Positions 1 through 12,646 of a stretch of 12,646 nucleotides of DNA are shown here, one piece after another (within the stretch, counting starts at the first letter, position 1; each line of letters opens with the position of its first letter). Made by a program: the position numbers and the translations under genes. The notes beneath the pieces were generated by a model. That model was given only the letters and a program-made list of their open reading frames with translations, had not been told where the DNA came from and did not search any database. The DNA is taken from IMG/VR virus record IMGVR_UViG_2703718674_000003; one strand, 5' to 3'. This stretch comes from a virus. Its lineage: Duplodnaviria; Heunggongvirae; Uroviricota; Caudoviricetes.

Positions 1-130
1 ATGTTTTCAGGTCAGCATTCAGCCCTGCCGCCATACGCTGTGAGTACCCGTCACCAAAACGCACTTCACGCACCGATGGCTGCGAGTTCACCTCCATATC
101 CGGCTTCACTTTCCAGCGAAAGGTTTTCAT
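1..130 (-). CDS. M: Minor tail protein M, N-terminal fragment (gene runs off the window start)
   Basis: Reverse complement of 1..130 translates from ATG (130..128) as MKTFRWKVKPDMEVNSQPSVREVRFGDGYSQRMAAGLNADLKT, which closely matches the N-terminus of lambda gpM as I recall it. The ATG overlaps the H stop codon in an ATGA arrangement (127..130). Confidence 0.85.
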   Translation of the reverse strand, partial: MKTFRWKVKPDMEVNSQPSVREVRFGDGYSQRMAAGLNADLKT

Positions 131-2772
131 CGCCCGCTCCCCGATAACATACCGCCATCACGCAACTGCAGCCGGAGCTCATCCTGCGCCCCCTTGCGGG
201 CCATGTCATACACCGCCTTCATCAGCTGCGGCCCCGCCTGTCCGTTGGTGCCGTCGTTCTGAATCACCACGTGATTGTTCTGATTAAAATTAATACCTTC
301 CGCCCGCCGCATCTGCGCCGGACTTCCGGCACCACCCACATAACCACCTTCCGCATAGCCGCGCATCAGACGGTAAAGATTCCCCACACCTATCCGGCTG
401 GTTGCCTCTTTCGTGAAAACAAACTCCCCGCGGTGAACTATCCCCGCAGGCTCATATTTGCCGCCCGTCCCCGTAAATCCTCCGGTCGCGAAATGGAAGT
501 TCGCCGCCGCAGCCTGAATGGCCGTCCCCGAGGAAGCAGATGCACCACCACCGAAAGCACCGCCAATGGCGCTGCCGATACGCCCGACAATGCCCACCAT
601 GGCCTGTTTAAGCAGGATTTCTGTCATCATGGACAGCACCGAACGGGTGAATCCCCGCCAGTCTGCCTCTGCACCGGTCAGCATCGCCGCCATATTCTGT
701 GCAATACCGTCAAAGGTCTGCGTGGCAGCACTTTTAACCTGCGAAAAACTGTCCGTCGCACTTTCCGCCCACTCGCCCCAGCCGGACTTCAGCCCGGCCA
801 TCCAGCTTCCACGAAGCTGCTCCTCCGCAGACCAGGTGTTCTTCAGTGCCGATGTGGCCTTCGCCAGCGCAGCCGGATTATCACCGTACACGTCCCGAAG
901 ACGCTGCGCTTCAGACTCCCGCTGCGCCTGACGGTCAGTGAGACCGCGGGCTTTTGCGCTGATGGCGGCCTGCTTCGCGCTCTGCTGCTCTTCAAACCGC
1001 ACCGCCTGCTGTGCCAGCTCATTCAGGCGTTTCTGGTATTCAACCTTGTCGCCCAGCTCAGCCAGCTGGCGTTTGTACTCCAGCGTCTCGTCTTTATGCG
1101 CCAGCAGGGATTTTTCCTGCTCAGATAACTGTCGTTTCGTGGCAGCCTCTTTCAGGACCGCATACTGACTTTCCGCCTTCCATAAATCACGGCGCTGCCG
1201 GCTGATTTTCTCATTCGCACCGCTGTGTTTTTCCAGCGTCCTGAGCTCAGCTTCAAGGGCAAGCAGAGCCTCTCTTGCCTGCTCCTCTTCCCTCTCCCCG
1301 GCAGAGCGCGTTTTCGGTGATGTATGCTTTTTACCTGTCAGCTCTTCAGCCAGACGGCTGACGGCTTCCTGCTGCCCCGGACCTTTGCTGACGCCTGTTG
1401 CACGCGAACGGTTGATGTACCCCATTTCCCCCTGGCGTATACGCGCATCCCGTTCCGCAATGGATTTTCTCAGCGCCAGTTCATCACGTTTTGTTTTCTC
1501 AATAAATACGCGGTTCTCTTCTGCCAGTTCACCAAACAACGCACCAACGCCGGGCACATTCTTTGTCGTTTCCCAGGCTGACTGAATAAATTCAGCCAGC
1601 GCCAGATCCCCCTGCACAAGCAGCAGCTTCACCTGTTCAACGGTTCCGGCCACCACGTCAGTGATCAGACTGAGTGCCCCCAGTGTATGATCACCTATCC
1701 ATGCCCATGCGTCAGAAGTCCAGGTTTTAACATCGTCCCAGATTTTTTCCACCGGCGTGGCCGCTTTATCAAGTTGCTCCAGACGTGCATTCATGACATC
1801 CGCAAACAGGGACATCGCCTCCGTCACCGCAGCCTGTTTACCTTTCGTGCGCTCAAGCTCATCAATATGGCGTAACTGGGAAACGCTCAGGAAGTTATAC
1901 TGCTGATTCAGGGAGGCCAGCGCCTTCACCGGATCTGCTGCAATCCCTTCAAAGGCTTTTTCCACCTTCCCGGCATCGTCCCCCACCGTCTGCAGCCATC
2001 TCTGAGAGGTTTCCCCCATGATCCGTAGCTGCCCGGCGGTATATTTCCCGCTTTCTGCCAGACGGGCCAGATTTTCTGCCGCCTGTCTGATACCACCACC
2101 GGCTTCATCGCTGATCACCCCGGCCATTTTCCACAATTCTGCCGTTGTGGTGGCAGCCGCCCCTCCGGTCAGGATCAGTGAACGCAATAAGGCCCGGTCA
2201 GCCTGCTCTGCCTGCCAGGCGGCGGCAGCAAGCGCGGCCAGTACGGCAACCCCGCCACCTGCCGCCACACGGGCCACCGACATAAATCGTCCCAGCTCAC
2301 CGGCATTCCGGGCATTTTCAGCCAGTGCATTTGCCGTATCTGACAGCGACTCCTCTGATGATTCAGAGGCATCCCTGATCCCGAGAAGTTCCTCCTTCAG
2401 CAGGGTAAGCAGGCTGAGCGGTCCACCGAATGAATCGCTGATCTGCCCCCCCTGCTGCAGCATGATAAGGAAGGGATTCTGACCACCGGCAAGCTGAGTG
2501 ACAATATCCGTGAACTGTGCGGGCAGTGTGCGCATGGCAGCCTTATACTGTCCGACTGATATCCCGGCTTTTTGTGCCGCCAGCGCCTGTCGGCTCAGAC
2601 TCTGCTCAGCAGCATCAGCCTGTTTTCTGAAAGACTGACTGACTTTCCCGGACATCAAATCAGCAAGCGCACTGGTTTCACCCAGCTCTTTTTTTACCCG
2701 CGCTGCCTCTTCAGAAAAACGGGCAGAATCCAGTGTCAGCACGGCTGTCAGATCGGCAAAATTACCTGCCAT
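127..2772 (-). CDS. H: Tail tape measure protein (lambda gpH-like), about 881 aa
   Basis: The protein matches lambda gpH along its length by eye, with long identical blocks such as SLSRQALAAQKAGISVGQYKAAMR, LTLQAELRTLEKHAGANEKIS-like, SVLSMMTEILLKQAMVGIVG and AGIVHRGEFVFTKEATSRIGVGNLYRLMRGYA. The ORF track starts it at a GTG (2781), but the ATG at 2772 has an AGGAGG Shine-Dalgarno 8 nt upstream and aligns with the lambda H start (MAGNFADL vs MAEPVGDL). Stop TGA at 129..127. Confidence 0.93.
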   Translation of the reverse strand: MAGNFADLTAVLTLDSARFSEEAARVKKELGETSALADLMSGKVSQSFRKQADAAEQSLSRQALAAQKAGISVGQYKAAMRTLPAQFTDIVTQLAGGQNPFLIMLQQGGQISDSFGGPLSLLTLLKEELLGIRDASESSEESLSDTANALAENARNAGELGRFMSVARVAAGGGVAVLAALAAAAWQAEQADRALLRSLILTGGAAATTTAELWKMAGVISDEAGGGIRQAAENLARLAESGKYTAGQLRIMGETSQRWLQTVGDDAGKVEKAFEGIAADPVKALASLNQQYNFLSVSQLRHIDELERTKGKQAAVTEAMSLFADVMNARLEQLDKAATPVEKIWDDVKTWTSDAWAWIGDHTLGALSLITDVVAGTVEQVKLLLVQGDLALAEFIQSAWETTKNVPGVGALFGELAEENRVFIEKTKRDELALRKSIAERDARIRQGEMGYINRSRATGVSKGPGQQEAVSRLAEELTGKKHTSPKTRSAGEREEEQAREALLALEAELRTLEKHSGANEKISRQRRDLWKAESQYAVLKEAATKRQLSEQEKSLLAHKDETLEYKRQLAELGDKVEYQKRLNELAQQAVRFEEQQSAKQAAISAKARGLTDRQAQRESEAQRLRDVYGDNPAALAKATSALKNTWSAEEQLRGSWMAGLKSGWGEWAESATDSFSQVKSAATQTFDGIAQNMAAMLTGAEADWRGFTRSVLSMMTEILLKQAMVGIVGRIGSAIGGAFGGGASASSGTAIQAAAANFHFATGGFTGTGGKYEPAGIVHRGEFVFTKEATSRIGVGNLYRLMRGYAEGGYVGGAGSPAQMRRAEGINFNQNNHVVIQNDGTNGQAGPQLMKAVYDMARKGAQDELRLQLRDGGMLSGSGR

Positions 2773-2815
2773 CGTGGTCACCTCCTGAAATGTCCTCTGA
2801 TACCATCAATAACTG

Positions 2816-3573
2816 TCACAACCTCCTTCCCTCCTCCCCGAAACGGACTCCACCGGCGAGGCCCGCCGCCTTCTGCATCAGTACATCATTTTCGTCCGGC
2901 GCCTCCGCCTGTCCTTCCTCTGCCTCCGGAGCGAACAGGCTGAAATCCGCCGGATGCATATCCGGATCGCAAAAAAACAGGCTGAGTACGGCGTACATCA
3001 GCCCGGAAAAATGCATATCCAGCTGGGTATCCTGAAAATAATGCGTGCAGTAAAAACGTCGCCAGTCGGCATATTCGGTGGATGTCATCCCGGCAAGCAT
3101 GGCGCGCCAGTCGGCTCTCCCCATCTCACGCGCCAGTTTCAGGACAAAGTTCAGCTCGCCTTCGAATGCTTTTTTGATGTTACCGGCTCAGTCGCTTCTG
3201 TTTTCCCGGTTGGTTCAGGATCGGCATCGTGCCGGTTATCCAGCATACCTGAAAGATAAAGCACCCGGTTCGTTGCCTGATTCAGTGCATCAGCAGGCCA
3301 TCCCAGCATCACTTCACGGCGGATCTGCTGCATCTCTGTCTCCGGAGAGGCCAGAGTGCCTTTGAGGGAATGGGAATGCCATAGCGACATCGCCACAAGC
3401 AGGGATGCCGTTTCCAGATATCGCTGGTTAATGCGCACGACATCATGCTTCGTTGTCTTCTGTTGTTCTGCGTCTGAAACAAACTTCATATAATCAAACC
3501 GCTGCAGCGCAGACAATTCGGAAAGCGTGACGGACACACCGTTATATTCAAATTGTTCTGTTTTCAGAAACAT
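2816..3573 (-). CDS. T: Tail assembly chaperone G-T fusion made by programmed -1 ribosomal frameshift near the end of G (about 250 aa)
   Basis: A slippery heptamer A AAA AAG (mRNA sense) lies at 3175..3169, 5 codons before the G stop. The -1 frame is open from that point to the TGA at 2818..2816 and encodes AFEGELNLVLKLAREMGRADWRAMLAGM..., corresponding to the 102-aa ORF 2816..3124. Codon phase fits a -1 shift (G frame codon tops are 0 mod 3, T frame 1 mod 3). The position between V/G and H matches the conserved G/G-T arrangement of lambda-like tails. Confidence 0.8.
3151..3573 (-). CDS. G: Tail assembly chaperone G (lambda gpG-like), 140 aa
   Basis: The protein begins MFLKTEQFEYNGVSVTLSELSALQR, near-identical to the lambda gpG N-terminus. 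ATG at 3573 is preceded by GGAGG at 7-nt spacing. Stop TGA at 3153..3151. Confidence 0.9.
   Translation of the reverse strand: MFLKTEQFEYNGVSVTLSELSALQRFDYMKFVSDAEQQKTTKHDVVRINQRYLETASLLVAMSLWHSHSLKGTLASPETEMQQIRREVMLGWPADALNQATNRVLYLSGMLDNRHDADPEPTGKTEATEPVTSKKHSKAS
3169..3175 (-). promoter_or_regulatory. Slippery heptamer A AAA AAG for the G to G-T -1 frameshift
   Basis: Plus strand 3169..3175 is cttttttt-type (c followed by six t), i.e. AAAAAAG on the minus strand in the X XXY YYZ phase of the G frame (UCA AAA AAG). This is a canonical -1 frameshift heptamer, as in E. coli dnaX. Confidence 0.7.
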
Positions 3574-3603
3574 GTATTACCTCCGTTTACCCTGCAGCGC
3601 CCG

Positions 3604-3685
3604 NNNNNNNNNNNNNNNNNNNNNNNNNNNNNNNNNNNNNNNNNNNNNNNNNNNNNNNNNNNNNNNNNNNNNNNNNNNNNNNNNN
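3604..3685. other. Assembly gap (82 N)
   Basis: Uninterrupted run of n characters. It is not a multiple of 3, so the reading frame across it is meaningless. Confidence 0.99.
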
Positions 3686-4283
3686 CGGAAACCGCTCTGA
3701 ACGTCTTGTCGGTTGCACTTTCCGGCTCAAAAGAAACCGTCAGGGTGGTTGTTTTCCCTTTTGCCACCGTACCGGATGTCGGTGTCACCTTAATTGCAGT
3801 GGCCGGCGTAATTTCGCTGCGTTCTTCCGCCACGGAAGGTTTGCCCACGTTAGTGACTTTCACCGTGCGGGTGATCACTTCTTTCGCCGTCACGGCCTTA
3901 CCGATACTGCTGACCCAGCCACGGAACACATCCACCGTGCCATTTGGGAAACGGATTTTATAGGCCCGCACATCCCCGCTTTCAAACCAGCCTATAAGCC
4001 CTTTCTGACCTTCTTCTCCCGGTTTCCAGGCCAGCGTAAAACTGGTATCTCCTGCAGACTTCTGCCCCTGCCCGGTCGCGGTCCAGTCCGCGTCTTCATC
4101 ATCCAGGTAGTTATCATCGTAGGGTTCTGCCGTCATCTCGCCCGGCGTCAGATCCTTCACCTTAGCCAGTCGCTGCCAGTCATCGTCTGACAACGGGTTT
4201 GCATAAGCATCACCCTTGCCGTTGTAAACCCACAGAGTGGTACCGGCACCTTTTACCGGCTCAAGGGGATTTGGTGTTGCCAT
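3686..4283 (-). CDS. V: Major tail protein V (lambda gpV-like); 3' end lost in the assembly gap
   Basis: The N-terminal 199 aa ([86 protein letters not shown]...FRAVS) are near-identical to lambda gpV. ATG at 4283 is preceded by a GAGGA Shine-Dalgarno. The true stop lies within or just after the N run, in the roughly 30 nt before the G start. The ORF-track tail (GRCRVNGGNTCF, ending 3564) depends on an arbitrary frame across the gap and is not trusted. Confidence 0.85.
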
Positions 4284-4290
4284 ATCGTCC

Positions 4291-4689
4291 TCACATCTCG
4301 TAGGTAATTTTCCACAGGAGATCTGCCGATCCCCACATCATAAACTCATCATCCCGGCGGTAGTCATACCCCTGAAGATTCATCTTCAGCAGTAATGCAC
4401 TGAGCCCGGGAACTGCCTCCAGCGCAGGAAGAATTTTTTCTTCCATCCACATATCCAGTGCCGAGTCCGGTTCTTTTGCCCTGAGAAAAACCTCAATATG
4501 CAGTGTCGCCTCCCAGGTTCCCTCATCAACGAACTCGTCAGCAGCAGACGCATCTGTCAGGTAAACAGCAACAGCAGGCAGTTCCTGTTCATCAATAAAA
4601 ACCGGGCGACCGTCAAACCAGCTCACCCTCTCAGAAATATTTTCTTTCAGGGCAGACAGAACTGCCGCCCGTATTTCACGGTGTTTCAT
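4291..4689 (-). CDS. U: Tail terminator protein U (lambda gpU-like), 132 aa
   Basis: [14 protein letters not shown] ... GYDYRRDD ... ITYEM matches lambda gpU at both termini. ATG at 4689 is preceded by GGGAGG. Confidence 0.93.
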
Positions 4690-4701: not shown

Positions 4702-5331
4702 TCATTTTCTTTTCAGCACCAGGCGTAACTGATGCGTCATGGCTTTCATCATCTGCGCCGGTAATTTTTCCCGGTACATCCGGTCCCGTTCACGTTCAAA
4801 GGTTTCTGCCAGCGGTCCGGCAGTCGTAATCTTCACCACTTCGATCGGCAGACGGTGGCGTTTCGGCCTCCCTTTGCTGTCCGCGCCGGTGGATGATGAT
4901 GCCCACGGCATACGCTGCATCACATGCCAGCGTCCGTTAGCCAGCCGGGTGATAAAGGCGTCCGGGATCCGTCTTTTCCCCACAATCAGCACACTGCCGC
5001 CCCCTTTCAGGGCCGCACGCTGTCCTTTCTTTCTCCGTTTTCTGCGGGAAAGTCGAACGCGGGCCTCCCCCAGTTTGATGGCGGGCAGGTTGCCGGTATT
5101 GATGTAAACCTTTGCGTAAACCTTATCCGGTCGTGCCGGACTTAACCGGATGCGGGCACGGATAAGACGACGGGGAACGGCCAGCTCCCTGGCAACTGAA
5201 GAGGCCGTTTTCGCAATAATGGCCCCCGCCACTCGGTTCAGTGTCGTGGCAGAGGCCCGGGGAACGGCACGGCGATCAATTGCATCCAGATTTTTCATGG
5301 CCTGCGCCAGACCTTTTATTGCCATACTCAT
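4702..5331 (-). CDS. Z: Tail completion protein Z (lambda gpZ-like), 209 aa
   Basis: The N-terminus MSMAIKGL and the block LSRRKRRKKGQR..LKGGGSVL.VG.RRIP.AFI..L.NGRWHVMQR match lambda gpZ as recalled. The ATG at 5331 overlaps the upstream gene stop (ATGA at 5328..5331). Confidence 0.9.
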   Translation of the reverse strand: MSMAIKGLAQAMKNLDAIDRRAVPRASATTLNRVAGAIIAKTASSVARELAVPRRLIRARIRLSPARPDKVYAKVYINTGNLPAIKLGEARVRLSRRKRRKKGQRAALKGGGSVLIVGKRRIPDAFITRLANGRWHVMQRMPWASSSTGADSKGRPKRHRLPIEVVKITTAGPLAETFERERDRMYREKLPAQMMKAMTHQLRLVLKRK

Positions 5332-5609
5332 TCCTGTTCGACAAAAATCCGGGGTTTACCGTTGTACGTGTCATAACGGGTCACCGTCAGTGTGCGCCCC
5401 GCAAACACAACAACATCATGACGGGCCGGACGGTACCGGGCTGAAAACACCACCAGTGACAACTGGCTGCCCGAAAGCGCCCCCATCTCCGCGGACTCTT
5501 CCTCCGGCATCACGTCGTACACGACGCCGTTAATCTCCGCCTGTTTGCCCATCACCCGAACGGTCGCCACGTCCATCCGGCAACACATTCGCGTAAACAG
5601 ATCAGACAT
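5328..5609 (-). CDS. Small head-tail joining/attachment-like protein, 93 aa (occupies the lambda FII position; possibly the Gifsy-2-type prophage family)
   Basis: ORF with ATG at 5609 and TGA at 5330..5328, translationally coupled to both neighbours (8-nt overlap upstream, ATGA overlap with Z). Its position between the head genes and Z is where lambda encodes FII. I see no obvious similarity to lambda FII, so the function is assigned by synteny. Confidence 0.6.
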   Translation of the reverse strand: MSDLFTRMCCRMDVATVRVMGKQAEINGVVYDVMPEEESAEMGALSGSQLSLVVFSARYRPARHDVVVFAGRTLTVTRYDTYNGKPRIFVEQE

Positions 5610-5928
5610 TGATTTTTACCGCCACAGTGGCGCTGTTTGCAGGGGCATTTTCCCAGGCTACCCCCGCTGCCACCGCACCGTCTGCAGCCAGCTGCACAAC
5701 CCCGTCCTTCAGATAAACCACCGCGCCGGACTGAATGTCGTCAGCAGACTGTTTGGGCAGCAGGAACACGCCTTCGGCAAAACCGTCACCGGCCTCACCG
5801 GCAGGAATATCGGTAATGGCCACGGCCACCATACTGCCGACCACCACCGCAGCACCGCTCAGGATGGTCTGATCTCCGGCATTCACCAGTTCAATGGTGG
5901 TACCGTCCTGTACAAAATTTTTCGCCAT
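5602..5928 (-). CDS. Small Gly/Ala/Val-rich head protein, 108 aa; probable capsid decoration/cement protein (DUF2190-like)
   Basis: ORF directly downstream of the capsid gene, with ATG at 5928 preceded by GGAGAAA. The composition and MAKNFVQDGTTIEL start resemble the small proteins found next to major capsid genes in many prophages. Assigned from memory of that family and from synteny, not from a search. Confidence 0.55.
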   Translation of the reverse strand: MAKNFVQDGTTIELVNAGDQTILSGAAVVVGSMVAVAITDIPAGEAGDGFAEGVFLLPKQSADDIQSGAVVYLKDGVVQLAADGAVAAGVAWENAPANSATVAVKINV

Positions 5929-5944
5929 AATGCTGTTTCTCCGG

Positions 5945-5993
5945 ACAGCCCCGGTGGGGCTGTTTTTCAGGCATAAAAAAAGCCCTTTCGGGC
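5945..5993 (-). terminator. Tandem hairpins in the capsid-decoration intergenic region; possible partial terminator after the capsid gene
   Basis: Minus strand: GCCC-GAAA-GGGC (5993..5982) followed by U7 (5981..5975), then an 8-bp GC-rich stem (5963..5945) just upstream of the decoration-gene ribosome binding site. Read on the plus strand, the 8-bp stem (acagcccc ggt ggggctgt) is followed by a T5 run and so looks like a plus-strand intrinsic terminator. Confidence 0.35.
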
Positions 5994-6015
5994 AGTGATT
6001 GTGATAACGCGGTTA

Positions 6016-8040
6016 TCAGGCCACCGACGAACGCACCAGCCCGCGCCAGTCAAGTGGTGCCACTCCGGCATCAATACGGATTTTTGTGGCAATGCCGTCA
6101 GTGGTGAAACCTTCCTGCTGATCAATGTATGGCGTGTCCACACCATCCAGCCAGGCCACTTCAATGGTGTCAGTGCCCTGTGCCGCCGCCAGATACCAGG
6201 TTTTCGGGTCTGCCGCATCAAGACGCGCTTCTGCAATCACCTCAGCAAAGTTCTGGATAGGGTTAATGACACCGGCGTTTGCATCCGCCCCTTTCACACT
6301 GGCCGATTTGATGGTCTGGTTCGCCACCGTCTCCAGTGCCACCGGTACCAGCATAAAGGCCGGACGGATATTCAGGGCACGATCGCCTTCTTTCTGCAGG
6401 CGCATCATCTGACGGGCCGCATCCAGTCCGGAAACGGAGATCCCCCCGGTGGCAATATTTTTGTGATCGGCATGGAACAGCGCCTTACCGTCGGACAGTT
6501 TCGGGTTATCCGTCAGCACCTTGTAGACCAGGTCACCAATCGTTGCCTTCGCCGCACGCCCCATCTTCATCGGCACGTCCACCAGCATATTCAGATCATC
6601 ATTGATAATGGCCTGGCGGGTGATGGAGAAAATCTCCCCGTAAGTGGCCAGTGCAATGGTCTCCTTGCGATCTGAGGTGGTGATGTATTTATACTCCGCC
6701 CCCTCACGAACCTGGCGCAGAGAACCAAAACCGCCCATCCCCACGCGATACGCTGTTTTGAAGTCTGACAGGCGTCCCTTACGGGTCCACTTCTGGAAGG
6801 TTTCTTCTGATTCCTCCCAGCCCTGGATCAGCCCCTTGTTCGACACATCCAGCAGAATATTGCCAAAATCAGAGGTGCTGTGCGTCAGCGCCAGCCCGAC
6901 CATCTGCATGGGGTTATAACTGGCCACCCCAATACCGCGCTCCGTCAGTGACATGCGAGCCCATTCACGCAGGGTCATCCCGTTATAGGCGTTATCCTTC
7001 TCGACATTTTCAAATCCGGCACGGGCCAGCATCGCCTGGCGGATCCCGTCCCCCACAAAATTGCCGTTTCCGGCATAAATATGGGCCGGTGTATTTTTGT
7101 TGGTCGGCGAGGACTCCTTGCCCATTTCATTCAGCAGTCGTTCACGGGCCATTTCCAGCGAACAGTCAGGATCAGCCACGCACTGTGCCTGAAGCGTCTG
7201 ATAGCGACCACCGAACATGGCAAACAGATCGTTAATGCCTGACATGCGGGCTTTCTGTTCTGCCATAACGCGGGCGCGAATGGTCGCCTCATCAGACACT
7301 GCCGGTACCGGTGATGGTTCTGTTACCGCCGGTGCAGGGATTGTCACTGTGGTATCACGCGGGGCACTGTTGCGTGGCGGAGTAATCATGTTTCGGATGG
7401 ATTCCGGCATCTTTTTAAATTCCTCTGTACGTTTTGACTGAATACATGCCATTGCCTCAACAGCGGGTGTCACCTGGTCAGCAAATCCGTGTGCCAGACA
7501 TTCGGCACCGGACATCCAGGTTTCATCCGCCAGCATGGCGGCAATTTCATCGGTGGTTTTTCCGGTTTTCTGCGCATAGGCTGGCAACAGTACCGATTCG
7601 ACTTTATCCAGCAAATCGGCATAACTGCGCATATCCTCAGCATCCCCGCCACTGAATCCCCATGGCTTATGGATCATCATGAAGGCATTTTCCGGCATAA
7701 TGACCGTATCACCGGCCATCGCAATCACAGATGCCATCGAGGCGGCAACGCCATCCACATACACGGTAATGGTCGCCCCCTGATTTTTCAGGGCATTAAA
7801 AATGGCGATGCCTTCAAAGACATCGCCACCCGGTGAATTGATATGGAGATTAATGTGGGTGATATCACCCAGAGCATTCAGTTCGCTGACAAACTGCTTC
7901 GCGGTAACTCCCCAGAAACCAATCTCGTCATAAATATAAATATCCGCGTCACCCGGCACCCCAGCCTGCATCCTGAACCAGGATTTATTCTTCATGCTGG
8001 CTTTCGGTGTCGCGCTGATACTGTCGTTCAGTTCCGGCAC
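6016..8040 (-). CDS. Fused prohead protease (ClpP/S14-like) - scaffold-like linker - major capsid protein (tripartite capsid gene), about 675 aa
   Basis: The N-terminal region (GDADIYIYDEIGFWGV ... INSPGGDVFEGIAIFNAL ... VDGVAASMASVIAMAGD ... MMIHKPWG) has a ClpP-like serine protease signature. The middle is a Pro/Ala/Glu-rich, likely helical segment. I recall the C-terminal roughly 300 aa as major-capsid-like (Mu gpT-like family). The start is uncertain: GTG at 8040 has an AAAGGAGG Shine-Dalgarno 5 nt upstream, while the alternative ATG at 7995 (MKNKSWF) has no good Shine-Dalgarno. The ORF-track start at 8187 overlaps the portal gene by about 200 nt and is unlikely. Stop is TGA followed by TAA at 6018..6013. 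Confidence 0.85.
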   Translation of the reverse strand: MPELNDSISATPKASMKNKSWFRMQAGVPGDADIYIYDEIGFWGVTAKQFVSELNALGDITHINLHINSPGGDVFEGIAIFNALKNQGATITVYVDGVAASMASVIAMAGDTVIMPENAFMMIHKPWGFSGGDAEDMRSYADLLDKVESVLLPAYAQKTGKTTDEIAAMLADETWMSGAECLAHGFADQVTPAVEAMACIQSKRTEEFKKMPESIRNMITPPRNSAPRDTTVTIPAPAVTEPSPVPAVSDEATIRARVMAEQKARMSGINDLFAMFGGRYQTLQAQCVADPDCSLEMARERLLNEMGKESSPTNKNTPAHIYAGNGNFVGDGIRQAMLARAGFENVEKDNAYNGMTLREWARMSLTERGIGVASYNPMQMVGLALTHSTSDFGNILLDVSNKGLIQGWEESEETFQKWTRKGRLSDFKTAYRVGMGGFGSLRQVREGAEYKYITTSDRKETIALATYGEIFSITRQAIINDDLNMLVDVPMKMGRAAKATIGDLVYKVLTDNPKLSDGKALFHADHKNIATGGISVSGLDAARQMMRLQKEGDRALNIRPAFMLVPVALETVANQTIKSASVKGADANAGVINPIQNFAEVIAEARLDAADPKTWYLAAAQGTDTIEVAWLDGVDTPYIDQQEGFTTDGIATKIRIDAGVAPLDWRGLVRSSVA

Positions 8041-9487
8041 TGTTGCCTCCTTTGTCGTTGACGGGATCCGTATCAAAGACCAGCCCCAGTCTGCTGTTTT
8101 CATCAATTTCAGCCTTGCGGCGACGTTTGACCTCATCCGGATTGCGCCCGCCGGCACGCACCCAGTCAGATTCTGTCGCTGCACCACCCCGGATCTGAAT
8201 TCTCCAGGCTTCAGCTTCCTTAACCGGGTCGATCCACGGCATCACCGGACCGGAATACGTCGCGTTATATAGCGTTTTCATCTCCACATCCGCCGGAATT
8301 TTCAGCAGACCTGCCGCAACCACCATATTCAGCCATGTCCGGTACACCGGGCGGGTTACCGCGCCAATAAAACAGTCCTGCAGGATCAGGTAACCATCCG
8401 TGGACTCGACCAGCTCCTGCCGCTGGGCGCTGTAGGTGCCGTTATAGTTACGCGCCGCACTGGAAAAACTCAGACGACTGCCTGCTGCCACTGCACGCAA
8501 CTGGCCGTTGCGGAAAGTTTCAAGGTTGGGATTGGGACGGTCAGATTTGACCATGCCGATATCCTCGCCCTTGCGCAAATCGTCATAAATAATACCCGGG
8601 GTGATATGGACTTCCCGCTCGGTTTCTTTGATCCCCGGATCTTCATAGTCCTGTCCGTCACCTTTACGGATATACAGTCCCAGCGCCGCAGCAATACGCG
8701 CCGCTGTCAGTTCCGCATCCTCATACTCCTTAAGGGCACTGATCCGCATCAGCACCCCCGATAACATGGATGAGCCTCGCGTCTGGTGCAGACGACGAGT
8801 GAACTTCAGGTGGATCATTTTTCCGGCAGCGATTTCTTTCGTATCACTCTGCCGGCCGCTGACCGGATAATTTTTATAAACCAGATATTTTTTCGGTCTT
8901 CCCCACTCATCAAGAAAAACCCCCTGATTCAGTCCGGCGGATTCATCAGTGCGCATGGGAACAAAATCCGGCTCCATCGCCTCAAGCCAGAATGGCACTC
9001 CCGCCGTCCGTTCCAGACCGTTTCCCGCACCACTGACCATCTGCGCAAACACTTCACCATCCCGCAGCCAGGTCCGCAGCAGTAAACGTTCAAGCACAGG
9101 ACGGGTATACTGCCCTGTCACATCCGGACTCACGGACCATTCAGCCCACAAACGGCGGATATCCGCAGCCAGCTCAGCCGCCATTTCCCCGTTTTTTCGT
9201 AATGGCTGAGGCTCCACAATAATTCCCCTGGCACCAATCACCCGCTCTTCCAGCTTGTCAAACACACCAATCACCAGGTCATGATTGATATCCAGAAAAC
9301 GGGCCTGCTCCCGCAGGGAAACCGCACCGTATTTACTGAGCTGATCAGCAGAGCGATTTTCCCGCCGGGCTTTATGTGTCCGGGTCGGTTTCACCGCCTC
9401 ATAGGCCATGATTAACGCCCTTGAACGCAGTCTGGCTGCTTTCCACCTAGGGGAAAACACGCCGATCACATCATCAATAATTGCCAT
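7985..9487 (-). CDS. B: Portal protein (lambda gpB-like), 500 aa
   Basis: Size and position (immediately after W and the terminase, before the protease-capsid gene) fit a lambda-family portal. The ATG at 9487 overlaps the W stop (TAATG). Confidence 0.9.
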   Translation of the reverse strand: MAIIDDVIGVFSPRWKAARLRSRALIMAYEAVKPTRTHKARRENRSADQLSKYGAVSLREQARFLDINHDLVIGVFDKLEERVIGARGIIVEPQPLRKNGEMAAELAADIRRLWAEWSVSPDVTGQYTRPVLERLLLRTWLRDGEVFAQMVSGAGNGLERTAGVPFWLEAMEPDFVPMRTDESAGLNQGVFLDEWGRPKKYLVYKNYPVSGRQSDTKEIAAGKMIHLKFTRRLHQTRGSSMLSGVLMRISALKEYEDAELTAARIAAALGLYIRKGDGQDYEDPGIKETEREVHITPGIIYDDLRKGEDIGMVKSDRPNPNLETFRNGQLRAVAAGSRLSFSSAARNYNGTYSAQRQELVESTDGYLILQDCFIGAVTRPVYRTWLNMVVAAGLLKIPADVEMKTLYNATYSGPVMPWIDPVKEAEAWRIQIRGGAATESDWVRAGGRNPDEVKRRRKAEIDENSRLGLVFDTDPVNDKGGNSAGTERQYQRDTESQHEE

Positions 9488-9723
9488 TAAAACCTCGCCA
9501 GTTTAAATCCCGGTTTTCCCCGCCTGCGGCTCACCATCGCGGCAAGCCTGCGTTCCCACTCCTGACGTCCGGCGCGGATCTGAGAAAGGCTTTCCAGCGT
9601 CAGTTGCTGCCCGTTGAAGGTGACAGACTTTCCCTCCAGTACGGCCATTTCCGCTTCACGGTACCGCTGTATCATTTCTCTGGCTTCTTCTGTGCTCACA
9701 ACCAGCCTCCTGATGTTATCCAT
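9487..9723 (-). CDS. W: Head-tail joining protein (lambda gpW-like), 78 aa
   Basis: The C-terminus ...MVSRRRGKPGF resembles the lambda gpW C-terminus (...QRRRGPAGFYV), and the length is similar. It sits between terminase large subunit and portal as in lambda. The ATG at 9723 overlaps the 3' end of the terminase gene by 28 nt. Confidence 0.8.
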   Translation of the reverse strand: MDNIRRLVVSTEEAREMIQRYREAEMAVLEGKSVTFNGQQLTLESLSQIRAGRQEWERRLAAMVSRRRGKPGFKLARF

Positions 9724-11819
9724 GGATTATCTTCCGCACGCTCCGTCCGCAGTTTTTTCTTCCGGCGACGGCGTTTTTCTGCCCCGGCCGTCAGTTCCGG
9801 GGATACCGTTTCACCAGAACGCTCCTGCGGGAAGACGAGCCACGTTTCCCGCTGTGCCCAGTCCGGTGCGGAGGGCCAGCGGATCTTTTCGTAACCATGC
9901 AGAACGGCAAGCGCATCCGCATAAACCAGCAGGTCAAACGCTTCGTTAGCGCCCCTGCCCGGTTTTCGCCATTTTCCGTCACTGCCGCGCTCTTCATAGG
10001 TCAGCTCATCGTAAAACCACCGCCCCAGCCAGTCGGGAAAGTGGATATAGTTCGGCCCTGGTGTGTCACGCCACAGGGCATTATTTACACGATCCTTAAA
10101 CGCATCCGTCTGAACCAGCCACAGCGCGACATCGCCACTGGCTCTGGCACGGCGGGCACTTCTGCCGGTATTATCCGGGAAGGTTCGGTTAATCAGCCTG
10201 TCACGGCGAAGTCCATCCCCCTTGAACAGAAACACCCTGTTGCCCAGTCCGTCACTCCGGCAACGACGCCAGAAACGATAGGCGTTATCTGTCACCCCGG
10301 CTTCCCCTCCCGTATCCACCGCCATGGCCATCAGACGCATGCGCACATCCGGATCAGAAGCCAGCGGCCATGTTTTATGGAACACATCCGTCAGCAACAA
10401 ATCCCAGTCCTCCGGATATGCCGCCGGATCAACCGGCAGACTTTCACCGTTGGGACTGCAGCGCAGTGAATGCCGGATGTTGTAGCGATCAACAATCCAG
10501 CGTTCCCCCTGCTCTCCGTATCCGGTGATCTGCACAACAAAACGGCGATTTTTACCGCCCTGTACGTCAACCGTTGCCTCAATAAAACGCACACCATCCG
10601 GCACAGATCGCCGGGGAAACGGCTCGGCACGCTGTTCAAGCAGTTCACTTTTACGCTGTTCCGTGGCTGAACGGGGCAGATAGGGTCGTCCGATATCGGT
10701 GTTCACCACCGCTTTCAGGGTCTCTTCACTGCCGGTTCGCTCATACTCTTCTTCTGCCGCCAGCAGTTTAAAAATCAGTTGTTCCCAGGTCTGAAACGCC
10801 GCAGCTGGCCCCTCCATCCAAAATGACGCAATCCGGGAGTTTCGTGGCGTTCCGGTGATACTGCCGTCCGCCGCCGCCCGTTCACCTTCACGAAGCCAGA
10901 TCCCCTGGTTATTCAGTTCGCGTTTCTGCTCAGGGGCAATCAGCCCGCGACAATGCGGACACATCAGACGGGCAGCCTGACCGGCAGCCACAAAATCCGG
11001 GTTATTCCGGTATCCGGTCATGTTATCCATCACCGGCTGAAAATATTCCCCGCAGTGCGGACACGGCCAGTACCACCGGCGGCGGTCTCCCCGGTTATAC
11101 AGTGACAGGATCCCCGTTGTTGGCGGTGCCTCATGTGCGCCACCACAACGCCATTTGGTATCGGTGATATCCCGCCCCGGTGAACTCTCGACCAGGGTCA
11201 TCCCCGAAGACATAAAGGTGGTGGTACGCTTTGAGGCCAGCGTGAAGGCATCCCCTTCCCCGTCCACGTTTTCAGGGAAACGGTCATAATCCGTCAGCGC
11301 CACACGACGGTAATCCGAAGAGGAAAAGACGGTGATCGACGGCCAGCCAATCTTCAGGAAGGAGCCGTCAAGAAACATTTTATCGTGGACGTTGTTGTCA
11401 TTACGGGAAGGACTGAGGCGCTTGCTGACCTCCGGACTGTGGCGAAACGTCCTGGAAAGACGCGTTCTGGAATGCTCACGCGCCTTCGTCTCAGTCATCT
11501 GCACCACCAGCATATCCGCCGGATCACAGATGATGCCGTACACAATCCAGCCATCAATCAGCCCTTCGGTTTTCCCGGTTCGCGCAGGTCCCACAAACAC
11601 CACCGCGTCATATTCACGGGCTGATAATGTATTAATGGGGTCAATCATATAGGGCGTCAGCGATGACTCCCACGGACCGGAAGTATTGGCTCCCCGTGGA
11701 ACCCGCATATAACGCCTGATGGCTTCCGCTACTGGTAACCGGCTGGGTGGGCGAAACAGCGAGGCCACTTCGCGCCAGATATCGGATGCGCGGCTATGGC
11801 TCTCGTTCACCTGATTCAC
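9696..11819 (-). CDS. A: Terminase large subunit (lambda gpA family), 707 aa
   Basis: The N-terminal SLFRP motif is shared with lambda gpA; a Walker A-like VFVGPARTGKTEG is present, and paired CPHCG motifs (CPHCGEYF, CPHCRG) suggest a zinc-binding region. The start is a GTG at 11819 that directly overlaps the small-subunit stop (minus strand reads ATG TGA, with GTG in the other frame); the next in-frame ATG would delete the conserved N-terminus. Confidence 0.92.
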   Translation of the reverse strand: MNQVNESHSRASDIWREVASLFRPPSRLPVAEAIRRYMRVPRGANTSGPWESSLTPYMIDPINTLSAREYDAVVFVGPARTGKTEGLIDGWIVYGIICDPADMLVVQMTETKAREHSRTRLSRTFRHSPEVSKRLSPSRNDNNVHDKMFLDGSFLKIGWPSITVFSSSDYRRVALTDYDRFPENVDGEGDAFTLASKRTTTFMSSGMTLVESSPGRDITDTKWRCGGAHEAPPTTGILSLYNRGDRRRWYWPCPHCGEYFQPVMDNMTGYRNNPDFVAAGQAARLMCPHCRGLIAPEQKRELNNQGIWLREGERAAADGSITGTPRNSRIASFWMEGPAAAFQTWEQLIFKLLAAEEEYERTGSEETLKAVVNTDIGRPYLPRSATEQRKSELLEQRAEPFPRRSVPDGVRFIEATVDVQGGKNRRFVVQITGYGEQGERWIVDRYNIRHSLRCSPNGESLPVDPAAYPEDWDLLLTDVFHKTWPLASDPDVRMRLMAMAVDTGGEAGVTDNAYRFWRRCRSDGLGNRVFLFKGDGLRRDRLINRTFPDNTGRSARRARASGDVALWLVQTDAFKDRVNNALWRDTPGPNYIHFPDWLGRWFYDELTYEERGSDGKWRKPGRGANEAFDLLVYADALAVLHGYEKIRWPSAPDWAQRETWLVFPQERSGETVSPELTAGAEKRRRRKKKLRTERAEDNPWITSGGWL

Positions 11820-12292
11820 ATATCGGCCTCATCACAACAGTCAATGACTGCCTTTTCCAGTGTGTCGCGGATCTCATCAACCACAATCTGTACTTCATTC
11901 AGTTGTGATGCAGTCCACCCCCTGTCCCTCTCCAGCCGGTCAGGCCAGGTTTCCAGTACCTGAACTATCGCTTTCACCACGACAGAAAAGGACCGCCTGA
12001 CATCACTGACTGGCACAAGCTGAACAGTTTCATGCTGAAATTTAAGACGCTCGCGCTCGGACTGATACCATGCCTTACGAGCGTGAGGATCCATATCCTC
12101 ATCTTCGGAAGATGGTGGTTTTTCCAGCAACGAAGTTATCAAATCCGTCAGGAGATACAGTTTTTTCTTTTCATTACTGCCTGGTGCAAGAGGAACATCC
12201 GCCATTCTGGCGGCAACAGTCTGCCGGTGCAGACCTGAAAGGGCTGCCAGTTGATTAATATTTAACTTCATATTTTTCAGCTCGCCGTCCAT
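11816..12292 (-). CDS. Nu1: Terminase small subunit (lambda Nu1-like, N-terminal DNA-binding helix-turn-helix), 158 aa
   Basis: The N-terminus MKLNINQLAALSGLHRQTVAARM resembles the Nu1 helix-turn-helix (VNKKQLADIFGASIRTIQNW). The gene lies immediately upstream of, and is coupled to, the large subunit. ATG at 12292 is preceded by GGAGGG at 6-nt spacing; an alternative ATG at 12271 aligns with the Nu1 start but has a weaker Shine-Dalgarno. Confidence 0.82.
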   Translation of the reverse strand: MDGELKNMKLNINQLAALSGLHRQTVAARMADVPLAPGSNEKKKLYLLTDLITSLLEKPPSSEDEDMDPHARKAWYQSERERLKFQHETVQLVPVSDVRRSFSVVVKAIVQVLETWPDRLERDRGWTASQLNEVQIVVDEIRDTLEKAVIDCCDEADM

Positions 12293-12370: not shown

Positions 12371-12510
12371 AACAAAAAACAACCACAACCATCATCTTTT
12401 TAATACTAACAGCATTAAAAACAACAAGTTACCATCATGATGATGATGACGATAAAATCACAAAAATGCGCCTTTTTCCGCGCCGCCCGCCCCGTGTTCA
12501 GGCCCACCCC
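12371..12510 (-). other. Candidate cos region (cosN-like GC-rich core plus A/T-rich cosB-like repeats)
   Basis: On the gene strand, 12495..12478 reads ACGGGGCGGGCGGCGCGG, which shares ACGGGGCGG with the lambda cosN junction (TTACGGGGCGGCGACCTCGCGG). It lies about 190 nt upstream of the terminase small subunit start, the same spacing as cosN to Nu1 in lambda. The A/T-rich DNA between it and the gene has two imperfect direct repeats ending in ACCATCAT (12371..12395 and 12417..12439). Confidence 0.4.
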
Positions 12511-12646
12511 ACCAGGAGGACCCGCAAAAAATGATAATGGTTATCATTTGCAACAAAATCCAGTTTCTTCCACCATCGCACCGGACTGGCGACTATGAGG
12601 GGACAACACCGCGCTCCGTTAACGCGGTAAACCCCGGTGTGTATCG

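Follow-up and report, generated by a model that had tools for sequence, protein, structure and literature searches.

How much of a lambda-like late operon belongs to another phage type when its capsid gene is not that of lambda? The question is raised by IMGVR_UViG_2703718674_000003, a 12,646-nucleotide (nt) stretch of Caudoviricetes DNA (the whole of which we call the window), where positions 5328-8040 encode a fused protease-capsid protein and two small proteins of 108 and 93 amino acids (aa), p108 and p93. A preliminary description, made from the sequence alone, had read this segment as a non-lambda capsid cassette set between lambda-like packaging and tail genes. The mosaicism and the non-lambda capsid are borne out by our analysis, but the lambda-like packaging side and the junctions at 5328 and 8040 are not. 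We assign a probability of about 0.85 to a wider arrangement, in which 5328-8040 is the capsid-forming section of an entire head module of the Gifsy-2/mEp460 type, running from cos to an FII-like stopper, joined to a lambda-like tail module in a Shiga toxin (Stx) prophage of Escherichia coli O157.

Stx prophages of E. coli O157:H7 such as VT1-Sakai and ASU11, and many complete genomes, match the window at 99.5-99.8% identity, and its DNA identity to Stx phages carrying the same head module is 97-99.6%. Part of the window was matched in 4162 of 5426 E. coli genomes, and at least 80% of it in 521. All long open reading frames (ORFs) lie on the minus strand: TerS, TerL, W-like, portal, a 659-723-aa ORF, the 108-aa and 93-aa ORFs, Z, U, V, G, T and H. 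A check of positions confirmed the three capsid-region genes as first described, with the 93-aa ORF at 5328-5609, the 108-aa ORF at 5602-5928 and the end of the long ORF at 6016, all on the minus strand. RefSeq names the long ORF 'ClpP-like prohead protease/major capsid protein fusion protein', the 108-aa ORF 'DUF2190 family protein' and the 93-aa ORF 'DNA breaking-rejoining protein'. The genes are listed below with the percentage of protein identity to the counterpart in lambda / mEp460 / mEp043 / Gifsy-2, a dash marking no BLASTP match; alternative coordinates are those of the Prokaryotic Genome Annotation Pipeline (PGAP).

6016-8040, minus strand: fused ClpP-like prohead protease, scaffold-like linker and HK97-fold major capsid protein (NF045540, Pfam, phrog_133); - / 78 / 77 / 62
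5602-5928, minus strand: p108, predicted capsid decoration/cement protein (PF09956 Phage_cement_2, formerly DUF2190; phrog_122; fold); - / 50 / 64 / 53
5328-5609, minus strand: p93, probable FII-type head-tail joining ('stopper' or head-closure) protein, Gifsy-2 family (PF13856, 2PP6, fold); - / 57 / 58 / 39
11816-12292, minus strand: TerS of the DUF1441 type, not Nu1-like (PF07278 3.8e-48, phrog_141); - / 55 / 50 / 36
9696-11819, minus strand: TerL, GpA family (GpA_ATPase and GpA_nuclease); 24 / 71 / 72 / 67
9487-9723 (PGAP 9487-9699), minus strand: W-like head-tail adaptor (phrog_118 4.5e-33); 35 over 34 aa only, E = 0.06 / 79 / 63 / 53
7985-9487, minus strand: portal (Phage_portal_2 2.8e-80); 21 / 78 / 73 / 64
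4702-5331, minus strand: Z-like tail completion protein, the first gene clearly nearer lambda (52%) than the Gifsy-2-type-head phages (29-44%); 52 / 44 / 43 / 29
4291-4689, minus strand: U-like tail terminator (PF06141), the last gene of the block that differs in DNA from lambda-type-head phages; 55 / 50 / 56 / 53
3587-4283, minus strand: V major tail protein, which starts the common lambda-like tail-shaft block; 79 / 61 / 68 / 60
G: 41 / 34 / 32 / 30
T: 71 / 39 / 55 / 39
H: 50 / 24 / 38 / 25

Seven head genes, from the DUF1441-type TerS to the PF13856 protein, are syntenic in mEp460, mEp043 and Gifsy-2, where their products are 36-79% identical to those of the window. Judged by these identities, the packaging and portal genes resemble lambda no more than the capsid genes do and belong with them, because they share at most 24% identity with lambda versus 50-79% with mEp460 and mEp043. 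Measured in the same way against lambda, affinity shifts once, at p93|Z, and does not shift at portal|capsid (8040). Z to H had been described as lambda-like, and at 41-79% identity to lambda they are. For terminase, W and portal, the lambda counterparts likewise described are recognisable at the level of family and no further: TerL is 24% and portal 21% identical, W reaches E = 0.06, and TerS gave no BLASTP match to Nu1.

These values bear directly on the narrower exchange, in which a capsid-only cassette (the fusion, p108 and p93) was swapped into a lambda-like late operon with junctions at ∼8040 and ∼5328. Such a swap would account for TerL and portal sharing their Pfam families with lambda A and B, for a gene order that parallels lambda, and for the shift in lambda affinity that does exist at p93|Z. 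However, TerL and portal are just 21-24% identical to lambda, W stands at E = 0.06 and TerS is unrelated, and all four are 55-79% identical to mEp460, like the capsid gene. At the DNA level, similarity to the mEp460 group passes unbroken over the portal|capsid boundary (5911-9729), and the sharp junctions lie elsewhere, at ∼4285 and ∼12520. We therefore regard a capsid-only swap as quite improbable.

The positions of those junctions came from phages that share the tail genes of the window. Many phages match window 1-4308 only, at 92-97% (megablast). One of them, PhiR12_2_star, has a full lambda-type head (Nu1, A, W, B, C/Nu3, D, E, FI, FII, Z, U). Sliding identity to this phage is 93-100% in V (3686-4285), ∼60% in U and at background in Z. 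Past the head block, similarity to PhiR12_2_star was found by blastn at window 12517-12646 only, which is the cosQ-side flank, and it breaks at ∼12520, ∼30 nt before the lambda cosN of that phage. Two features mark these edges.

4284-4290, no strand: sharp recombination junction in the U|V intergenic spacer; PhiR12_2_star and Stx1a phages are 93-100% identical below it and ∼60% above it
12479-12494, minus strand: candidate cosN-like G+C-rich site GGGGCGGGCGGCGCGG, aligned with the lambda cosN of PhiR12_2_star and putatively functioning as cos

The cos-like site came from this alignment, an exact search of the window for lambda cosN having given chance-level matches only. Comparison with Gifsy-type and lambda-type head modules thus locates the sharp DNA junctions, as read from the alignments, at U|V (∼4285) and beside cos (∼12520), and not at 5328 and 8040. 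Since similarity to PhiR12_2_star is lost at ∼4285 and returns only at ∼12520, the unit that distinguishes these phages at the DNA level is cos through U, ∼8.2 kb. This agrees with published evidence that lambdoid heads and tails are encoded by separate modules, the genes of each being transferred together (PMC9836094), and with the two head-region organisations reported among O157 lambdoid prophages (PMC2669165).

The protein and DNA comparisons mark different tail-side limits, and we take p93|Z to be the older module edge and U|V the recent one. In a stronger form, the tail-side edge proper would be p93|Z, Z and U would historically belong to the lambda-like tail module, and U|V would reflect a later, independent exchange of the tail shaft. 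Z is 52% identical to lambda versus 29-44% to the phages with a Gifsy-2-type head, U is 55% identical to lambda, and p93 is undetectable against FII by BLAST, all of which favour this form. Yet U is equally close to the U proteins of mEp043 and Gifsy-2 (53-56%), and the sole sharp DNA breakpoint found is U|V. We rate this placement at somewhat less than even odds; it complements the exchange of a whole head module and does not exclude it.

Within the module, the long ORF yields 674 aa when read from a GTG at 8040 and 659 aa from the ATG at 7995 chosen by PGAP. Pfam recognises two domains on this single ORF, CLP_protease (1.2e-36) and Phage_capsid_4 (9.4e-56), with a weaker match to Mu-like_gpT, and the protein falls in phrog_133. 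NCBIfam NF045540 matches it at 1004 bits (cut-off 475), residues 17-657 covering profile positions 2-651 of 652. The approximate sub-regions are as follows.

7471-7947, minus strand: protease
6892-7470, minus strand: linker and helical region
6019-6891, minus strand: capsid domain

The fusion proteins of mEp460, mEp043, Gifsy-2 and the window are colinear. Across the four phages the Pro/Gln-rich linker is variable, the helical stretch conserved and the capsid domain highly conserved, and the motifs GVAASMAS and MMIHKP, which we take to be the serine and histidine catalytic motifs of ClpP, are invariant. The capsid-region genes are closely packed, with a single gap of 87 nt between the capsid gene and that of p108. 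Separate C, Nu3, D, E or FI genes were found in the window neither by ORF, Pfam nor BLASTP search, and there is no space for them; BLASTP of the fusion, p108 and p93 against lambda proteins likewise revealed no similarity. The Pfam and NF045540 matches and the packing of the ORFs thus uphold the description of a fused protease-capsid gene in place of the lambda set.

An ORF of this kind might also arise from an assembly or frameshift artefact, or be a pseudogene, with two separate genes being the functional form. Only its unusual length, and the interruption of the VT1-Sakai region by IS629, speak for that. The ORF is instead matched over its full length by NF045540 and is intact in the plaque-forming phages mEp460 and mEp043, in Gifsy-2, in 80 viral contigs and in >500 complete E. 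coli genomes, and we give an artefact virtually no credence. Because the NF045540 match is full-length and the protein is colinear in mEp460, mEp043 and Gifsy-2, we conclude from the sequence comparisons that the fusion is real and not an assembly artefact.

The start of the gene was compared at its two candidate codons. The GTG at 8040 has AGGAGG 5 nt upstream, an arrangement kept in mEp460 and mEp043, and the PGAP ATG at 7995 has a weak Shine-Dalgarno sequence. On these signals GTG 8040 appears at least as good a start as ATG 7995, and its conserved AGGAGG supports the upper limit of 8040 first given for the gene.

Other observations concern the same region in related prophages. In VT1-Sakai (AP000400.1), the sequence matching window 5200-8300 is split in two pieces by IS629, an insertion that the window does not carry. 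A head-formation defect has been reported for Sp15 (PMC2669165), with which this interruption of the VT1-Sakai head region is consistent. The same study observed a prolate-head siphovirus (44 x 95 nm) in O157 Sakai lysates and ascribed it to an unidentified lambdoid prophage. Finally, helper-embedded phage-inducible chromosomal island satellites integrate at 'C:CLP_protease:110' in lambdoid prophage late genes (PMC10111431), a target that may correspond to the fusion gene family.

The two small proteins had been called the least characterised genes of the window, which does not hold: both belong to curated Pfam and PHROG families, and p93 has a homologue of solved structure, 2PP6. Profile searches and structure predictions place p108 in a decoration family with a matching fold, and p93 in PF13856 with an FII-like fold.

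The p108 gene starts 87 nt downstream of the capsid gene. Its product matches PF09956 (6.6e-19, 68.6 bits, gathering threshold 24) over residues 6-106 of 108, and phrog_122 'head decoration' at 4e-39. A search of PDB sequences with p108 returned chance matches only. An AlphaFold2 model built from a 40-sequence alignment is all-beta, with a predicted local distance difference test score (pLDDT) of 91.8. The best Foldseek match of this model in the PDB is the phiCD508 decoration protein gp48, with a template-modelling (TM) score of 0.77; further matches include the phi29 head-fibre base (gp8.5) and HFTV1, Sf11, T1 and Pam3 capsid chains, among others. On the T=7 shell of phiCD508, gp48 is present as 140 trimers, or 420 copies (PMC11948020).

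Similarity to lambda gpD is much harder to demonstrate. Against gpD and the phage 21 protein SHP (1C5E, 1TD0), Foldseek aligned a 59-column core only, with TM 0.42-0.47 and E = 0.5-0.8. By sequence, p108 gave neither an HDPD (PF02924) match nor a BLASTP match to gpD. Alignment of the p108 profile by hhalign gave E = 0.35 and a probability of 0.2%, the gpD side being a single sequence as the 80 viral gpD loci are all at least 98% identical and so provide no family profile. From family and model, we suggest that p108 corresponds to gpD in function but belongs to a different family, and it is not demonstrably a gpD orthologue.

The gene for p93 abuts Z, directly upstream of it. p93 matches PF13856 (6.7e-14, 52.2 bits, gathering threshold 24.1), and over residues 1-92 it matches the crystal structure of its Gifsy-2 homologue STM1035 (PDB 2PP6) at E = 3.3e-13. 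The predicted model (pLDDT 77) superposes on 2PP6 with TM 0.78 in Foldseek. Chains from two entries confirmed to contain gpFII rank next: 8K37_M, from the lambda neck, at TM 0.75 and E = 2e-4, and 8XOW_f, from the mature virion, at TM 0.67. The siphophage stoppers of R4C, T1 and Pam3 follow. By profile, p93 falls below the gathering threshold of the FII family PF05354 Phage_attach (18 bits versus 26, E = 0.0043), and sub-threshold matches to this family occur in 14 of 16 p93 family members. Reciprocally, lambda FII matches PF13856 over nearly its full length at E = 0.0028, and hhalign of the two families gives E = 1.7e-4 and a probability of 50% over 82 columns at 27% identity. Taken with the location of the gene just upstream of Z, these fold and profile matches are best explained if p93 is a divergent stopper of the FII type, a probable remote homologue of gpFII.

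It had been proposed that neither small protein resembles lambda D, FI or FII. This stands by BLASTP, and the part concerning FII fails under profile and fold methods. The preliminary description had named as the contrary outcome that both would prove to be divergent D and FII orthologues and the fusion an artefact; p93 does appear to be a divergent FII homologue, p108 is not a demonstrable D orthologue, and the fusion is not an artefact.

Database names suggest quite another function for these proteins. p108 appears as 'RecA/RadA family phage recombinase' or 'membrane protein', and p93 as 'DNA breaking-rejoining protein' or 'ATP-binding sugar transporter-like protein', from which both could be taken for non-structural enzymes or transporters. 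Neither, however, matches any nucleotide-binding or catalytic family; their folds match decoration and neck stopper proteins, and their position between the capsid and tail-completion genes is conserved. An enzymatic or transport role is thus highly improbable, the two names given to p93 are misnomers, and those given to p108 are misleading.

Two kinds of possible expression signal lie within and just after the capsid gene.

7408-7410, minus strand: in-frame internal ATG (M196, 'MPESIRNM') just past the protease domain, with GAGGA (∼7420-7424) 9-10 nt upstream
5975-5993, minus strand: terminator-like hairpin GCCC-GAAA-GGGC followed by T7, 23 nt past the capsid gene stop
5946-5962, minus strand: second hairpin CAGCCCC-ACC-GGGGCTG, 7 bp, directly upstream of the p108 ribosome-binding site

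Related loci were collected by a scan with the fusion alignment, which picked up only relatives at least 76% identical, so that conservation of internal start and hairpin is judged on few independent lineages. GAGGA-N9-10-ATG is kept in all ∼85 relatives examined (including a lineage in which the encoded EEF is changed to EDF), and the invariant GCCC/GGGC stem, with its variable loop, occurs in mEp460, mEp043 and Gifsy-2 and in 73 of 77 related viral loci. The ATG at 7410 could conceivably be a nested start like that of Nu3, giving an abundant 464-aa protease-less scaffold-capsid product and leaving the full-length form as a minority of protease-bearing subunits. We consider this unlikely; the conservation of GAGGA and ATG is equally explicable by conservation of the protein. 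Were it true, nested start and terminator hairpin together would constitute a built-in control of protease, capsid and downstream-gene stoichiometry in a head made from a single polyprotein.

In the annotations of mEp460 and mEp043, the hairpin that follows the capsid gene is a rho-independent terminator. Its stem has 4 pairs and was missed by a generic terminator scan that needs at least 5, so the hairpin was recognised by inspection of the sequence. Gifsy-2 has CCGGCAC/GTGCCGG at the position of the second hairpin, which amounts to compensatory changes. Both hairpins (5946-5993, minus strand) fall in the 87-nt gap between the capsid and p108 genes, within a late operon antiterminated by Q. 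As the biology of a protease-scaffold-capsid polyprotein is experimentally thin, the nested-start and terminator observations offer modest leads.

Some features of the tail genes affect how they are to be read. A run of 82 N at 3604-3685 stands for 138 nt of V, in the Ig-like C-terminal part; owing to this run the ORF list reads V into the wrong frame, and the true V stop is at 3587. PGAP labels T an incomplete pseudogene, T having no start codon of its own. The lambda G-T slippery heptamer is G GGA AAG. In the window, A AAA AAG occurs at 3169-3175 (minus strand), in register with the G frame and 18 nt before the G stop, and this sequence is likely the -1 frameshift site giving G-T. Another candidate, GGGAAAA at 3201-3207, was rejected as out of register with the G frame. 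The H tape-measure gene (127-2781) is mosaic relative to PhiR12_2_star, with 1-1265 at 92.6% identity, 1266-2422 unmatched, and then patches at 83-88%.

How might the head encoded by this module be built? By analogy, copies of the 659-674-aa polyprotein would assemble together on the portal to form a procapsid that encloses their N-terminal ClpP-like protease and helical scaffold-like region. The protease would cut off roughly the first 360 residues and leave a Mu-gpT-like, HK97-fold shell protein of ∼290 aa. TerS and TerL would then package DNA from cos, and the shell would expand. Trimers of p108 may cement the three-fold and quasi-three-fold sites, as gpD does in lambda, and the W-like adaptor with a hexamer of p93, the FII equivalent, would close the portal and dock the U-terminated tail. 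The module encodes no equivalent of FI.

Several points weigh against this account of a complete head module. Searchable literature yielded neither virion proteomics nor processing data nor a capsid structure for a Gifsy-2-type head, and literature on DUF2190 with decoration, on 2PP6 and on protease-capsid fusions contained nothing specific to such a head. Analogy supplies the presumed cleavage site and copy numbers, and also where p108 and p93 would bind. The sequence link between p93 and FII is sub-threshold (hhalign 50%; Pfam 18 bits versus 26), and the model on which the assignment chiefly depends is of medium confidence (pLDDT 77). The module edge is fuzzy, as Z and U stand about equally far from lambda and mEp043. 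Lastly, the lower identity of p108 and p93 to mEp460 (50-57%, versus 78% for the capsid) could come from extra small-scale exchange inside the head module.

The arrangement itself is already known, well populated and already annotated, and its novelty is low; it represents textbook lambdoid head/tail mosaicism in heavily sequenced Stx prophages. The value of the present analysis is for annotation. It identifies the exchanged unit as the whole cos-to-U block of head and connector genes, which fits co-transfer of interacting structural genes, corrects the database names of p93 and p108, and favours GTG 8040 over the PGAP start.

Among known systems, the closest is the head module of Gifsy-2, Fels-1, mEp460, mEp043 and cdtI, also carried by the Stx phages VT1-Sakai, ASU11, CP-1639 and 1720a-02. 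Gene order in the Gifsy-2/mEp460 type is identical to that of the window: TerS (DUF1441), TerL (GpA), W-like, portal, ClpP::capsid fusion, terminator hairpin, DUF2190, Gifsy-2 family, Z, U, V, G, T, H. The window differs from these phages in V, G, T and H, which are nearer lambda (79, 41, 71 and 50%) than mEp460 or Gifsy-2 (24-61%), so that a Gifsy-2-type head is combined with a more lambda-like tail.

The lambda head (Nu1, A, W, B, C/Nu3, D, E, FI, FII) resembles that of the window in the order of functions and in the TerL and portal families. Lambda C weakly matches CLP_protease, both proteases being of the ClpP/SppA superfamily, and both phages have a trimer-type cement protein and a stopper of the FII fold, those of the window being predicted. 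Protease, scaffold and capsid are on one polypeptide in the window, whereas lambda divides them among C, the nested Nu3, and E. For its capsid protein the window has the Phage_capsid_4/Mu-gpT type, and lambda has Phage_cap_E. The decoration gene (PF09956) follows the capsid gene in the window, whereas lambda D (HDPD) precedes E. The window is further distinguished by its lack of FI and by a TerS unrelated to Nu1.

For the small proteins, p108 resembles phiCD508 gp48 and other small cement proteins in its all-beta fold, at a sequence identity of just 9-17%, its capsid role being predicted. p93 is 39% identical to Gifsy-2 STM1035 (2PP6), with which it appears to share a common fold. It resembles lambda gpFII (1K0H, 8K37, 8XOW) in predicted fold and in its genome position directly upstream of Z, and differs from it in length (93 versus 117 aa), in an identity of ∼22-27% over aligned columns, and in falling below the FII Pfam threshold.

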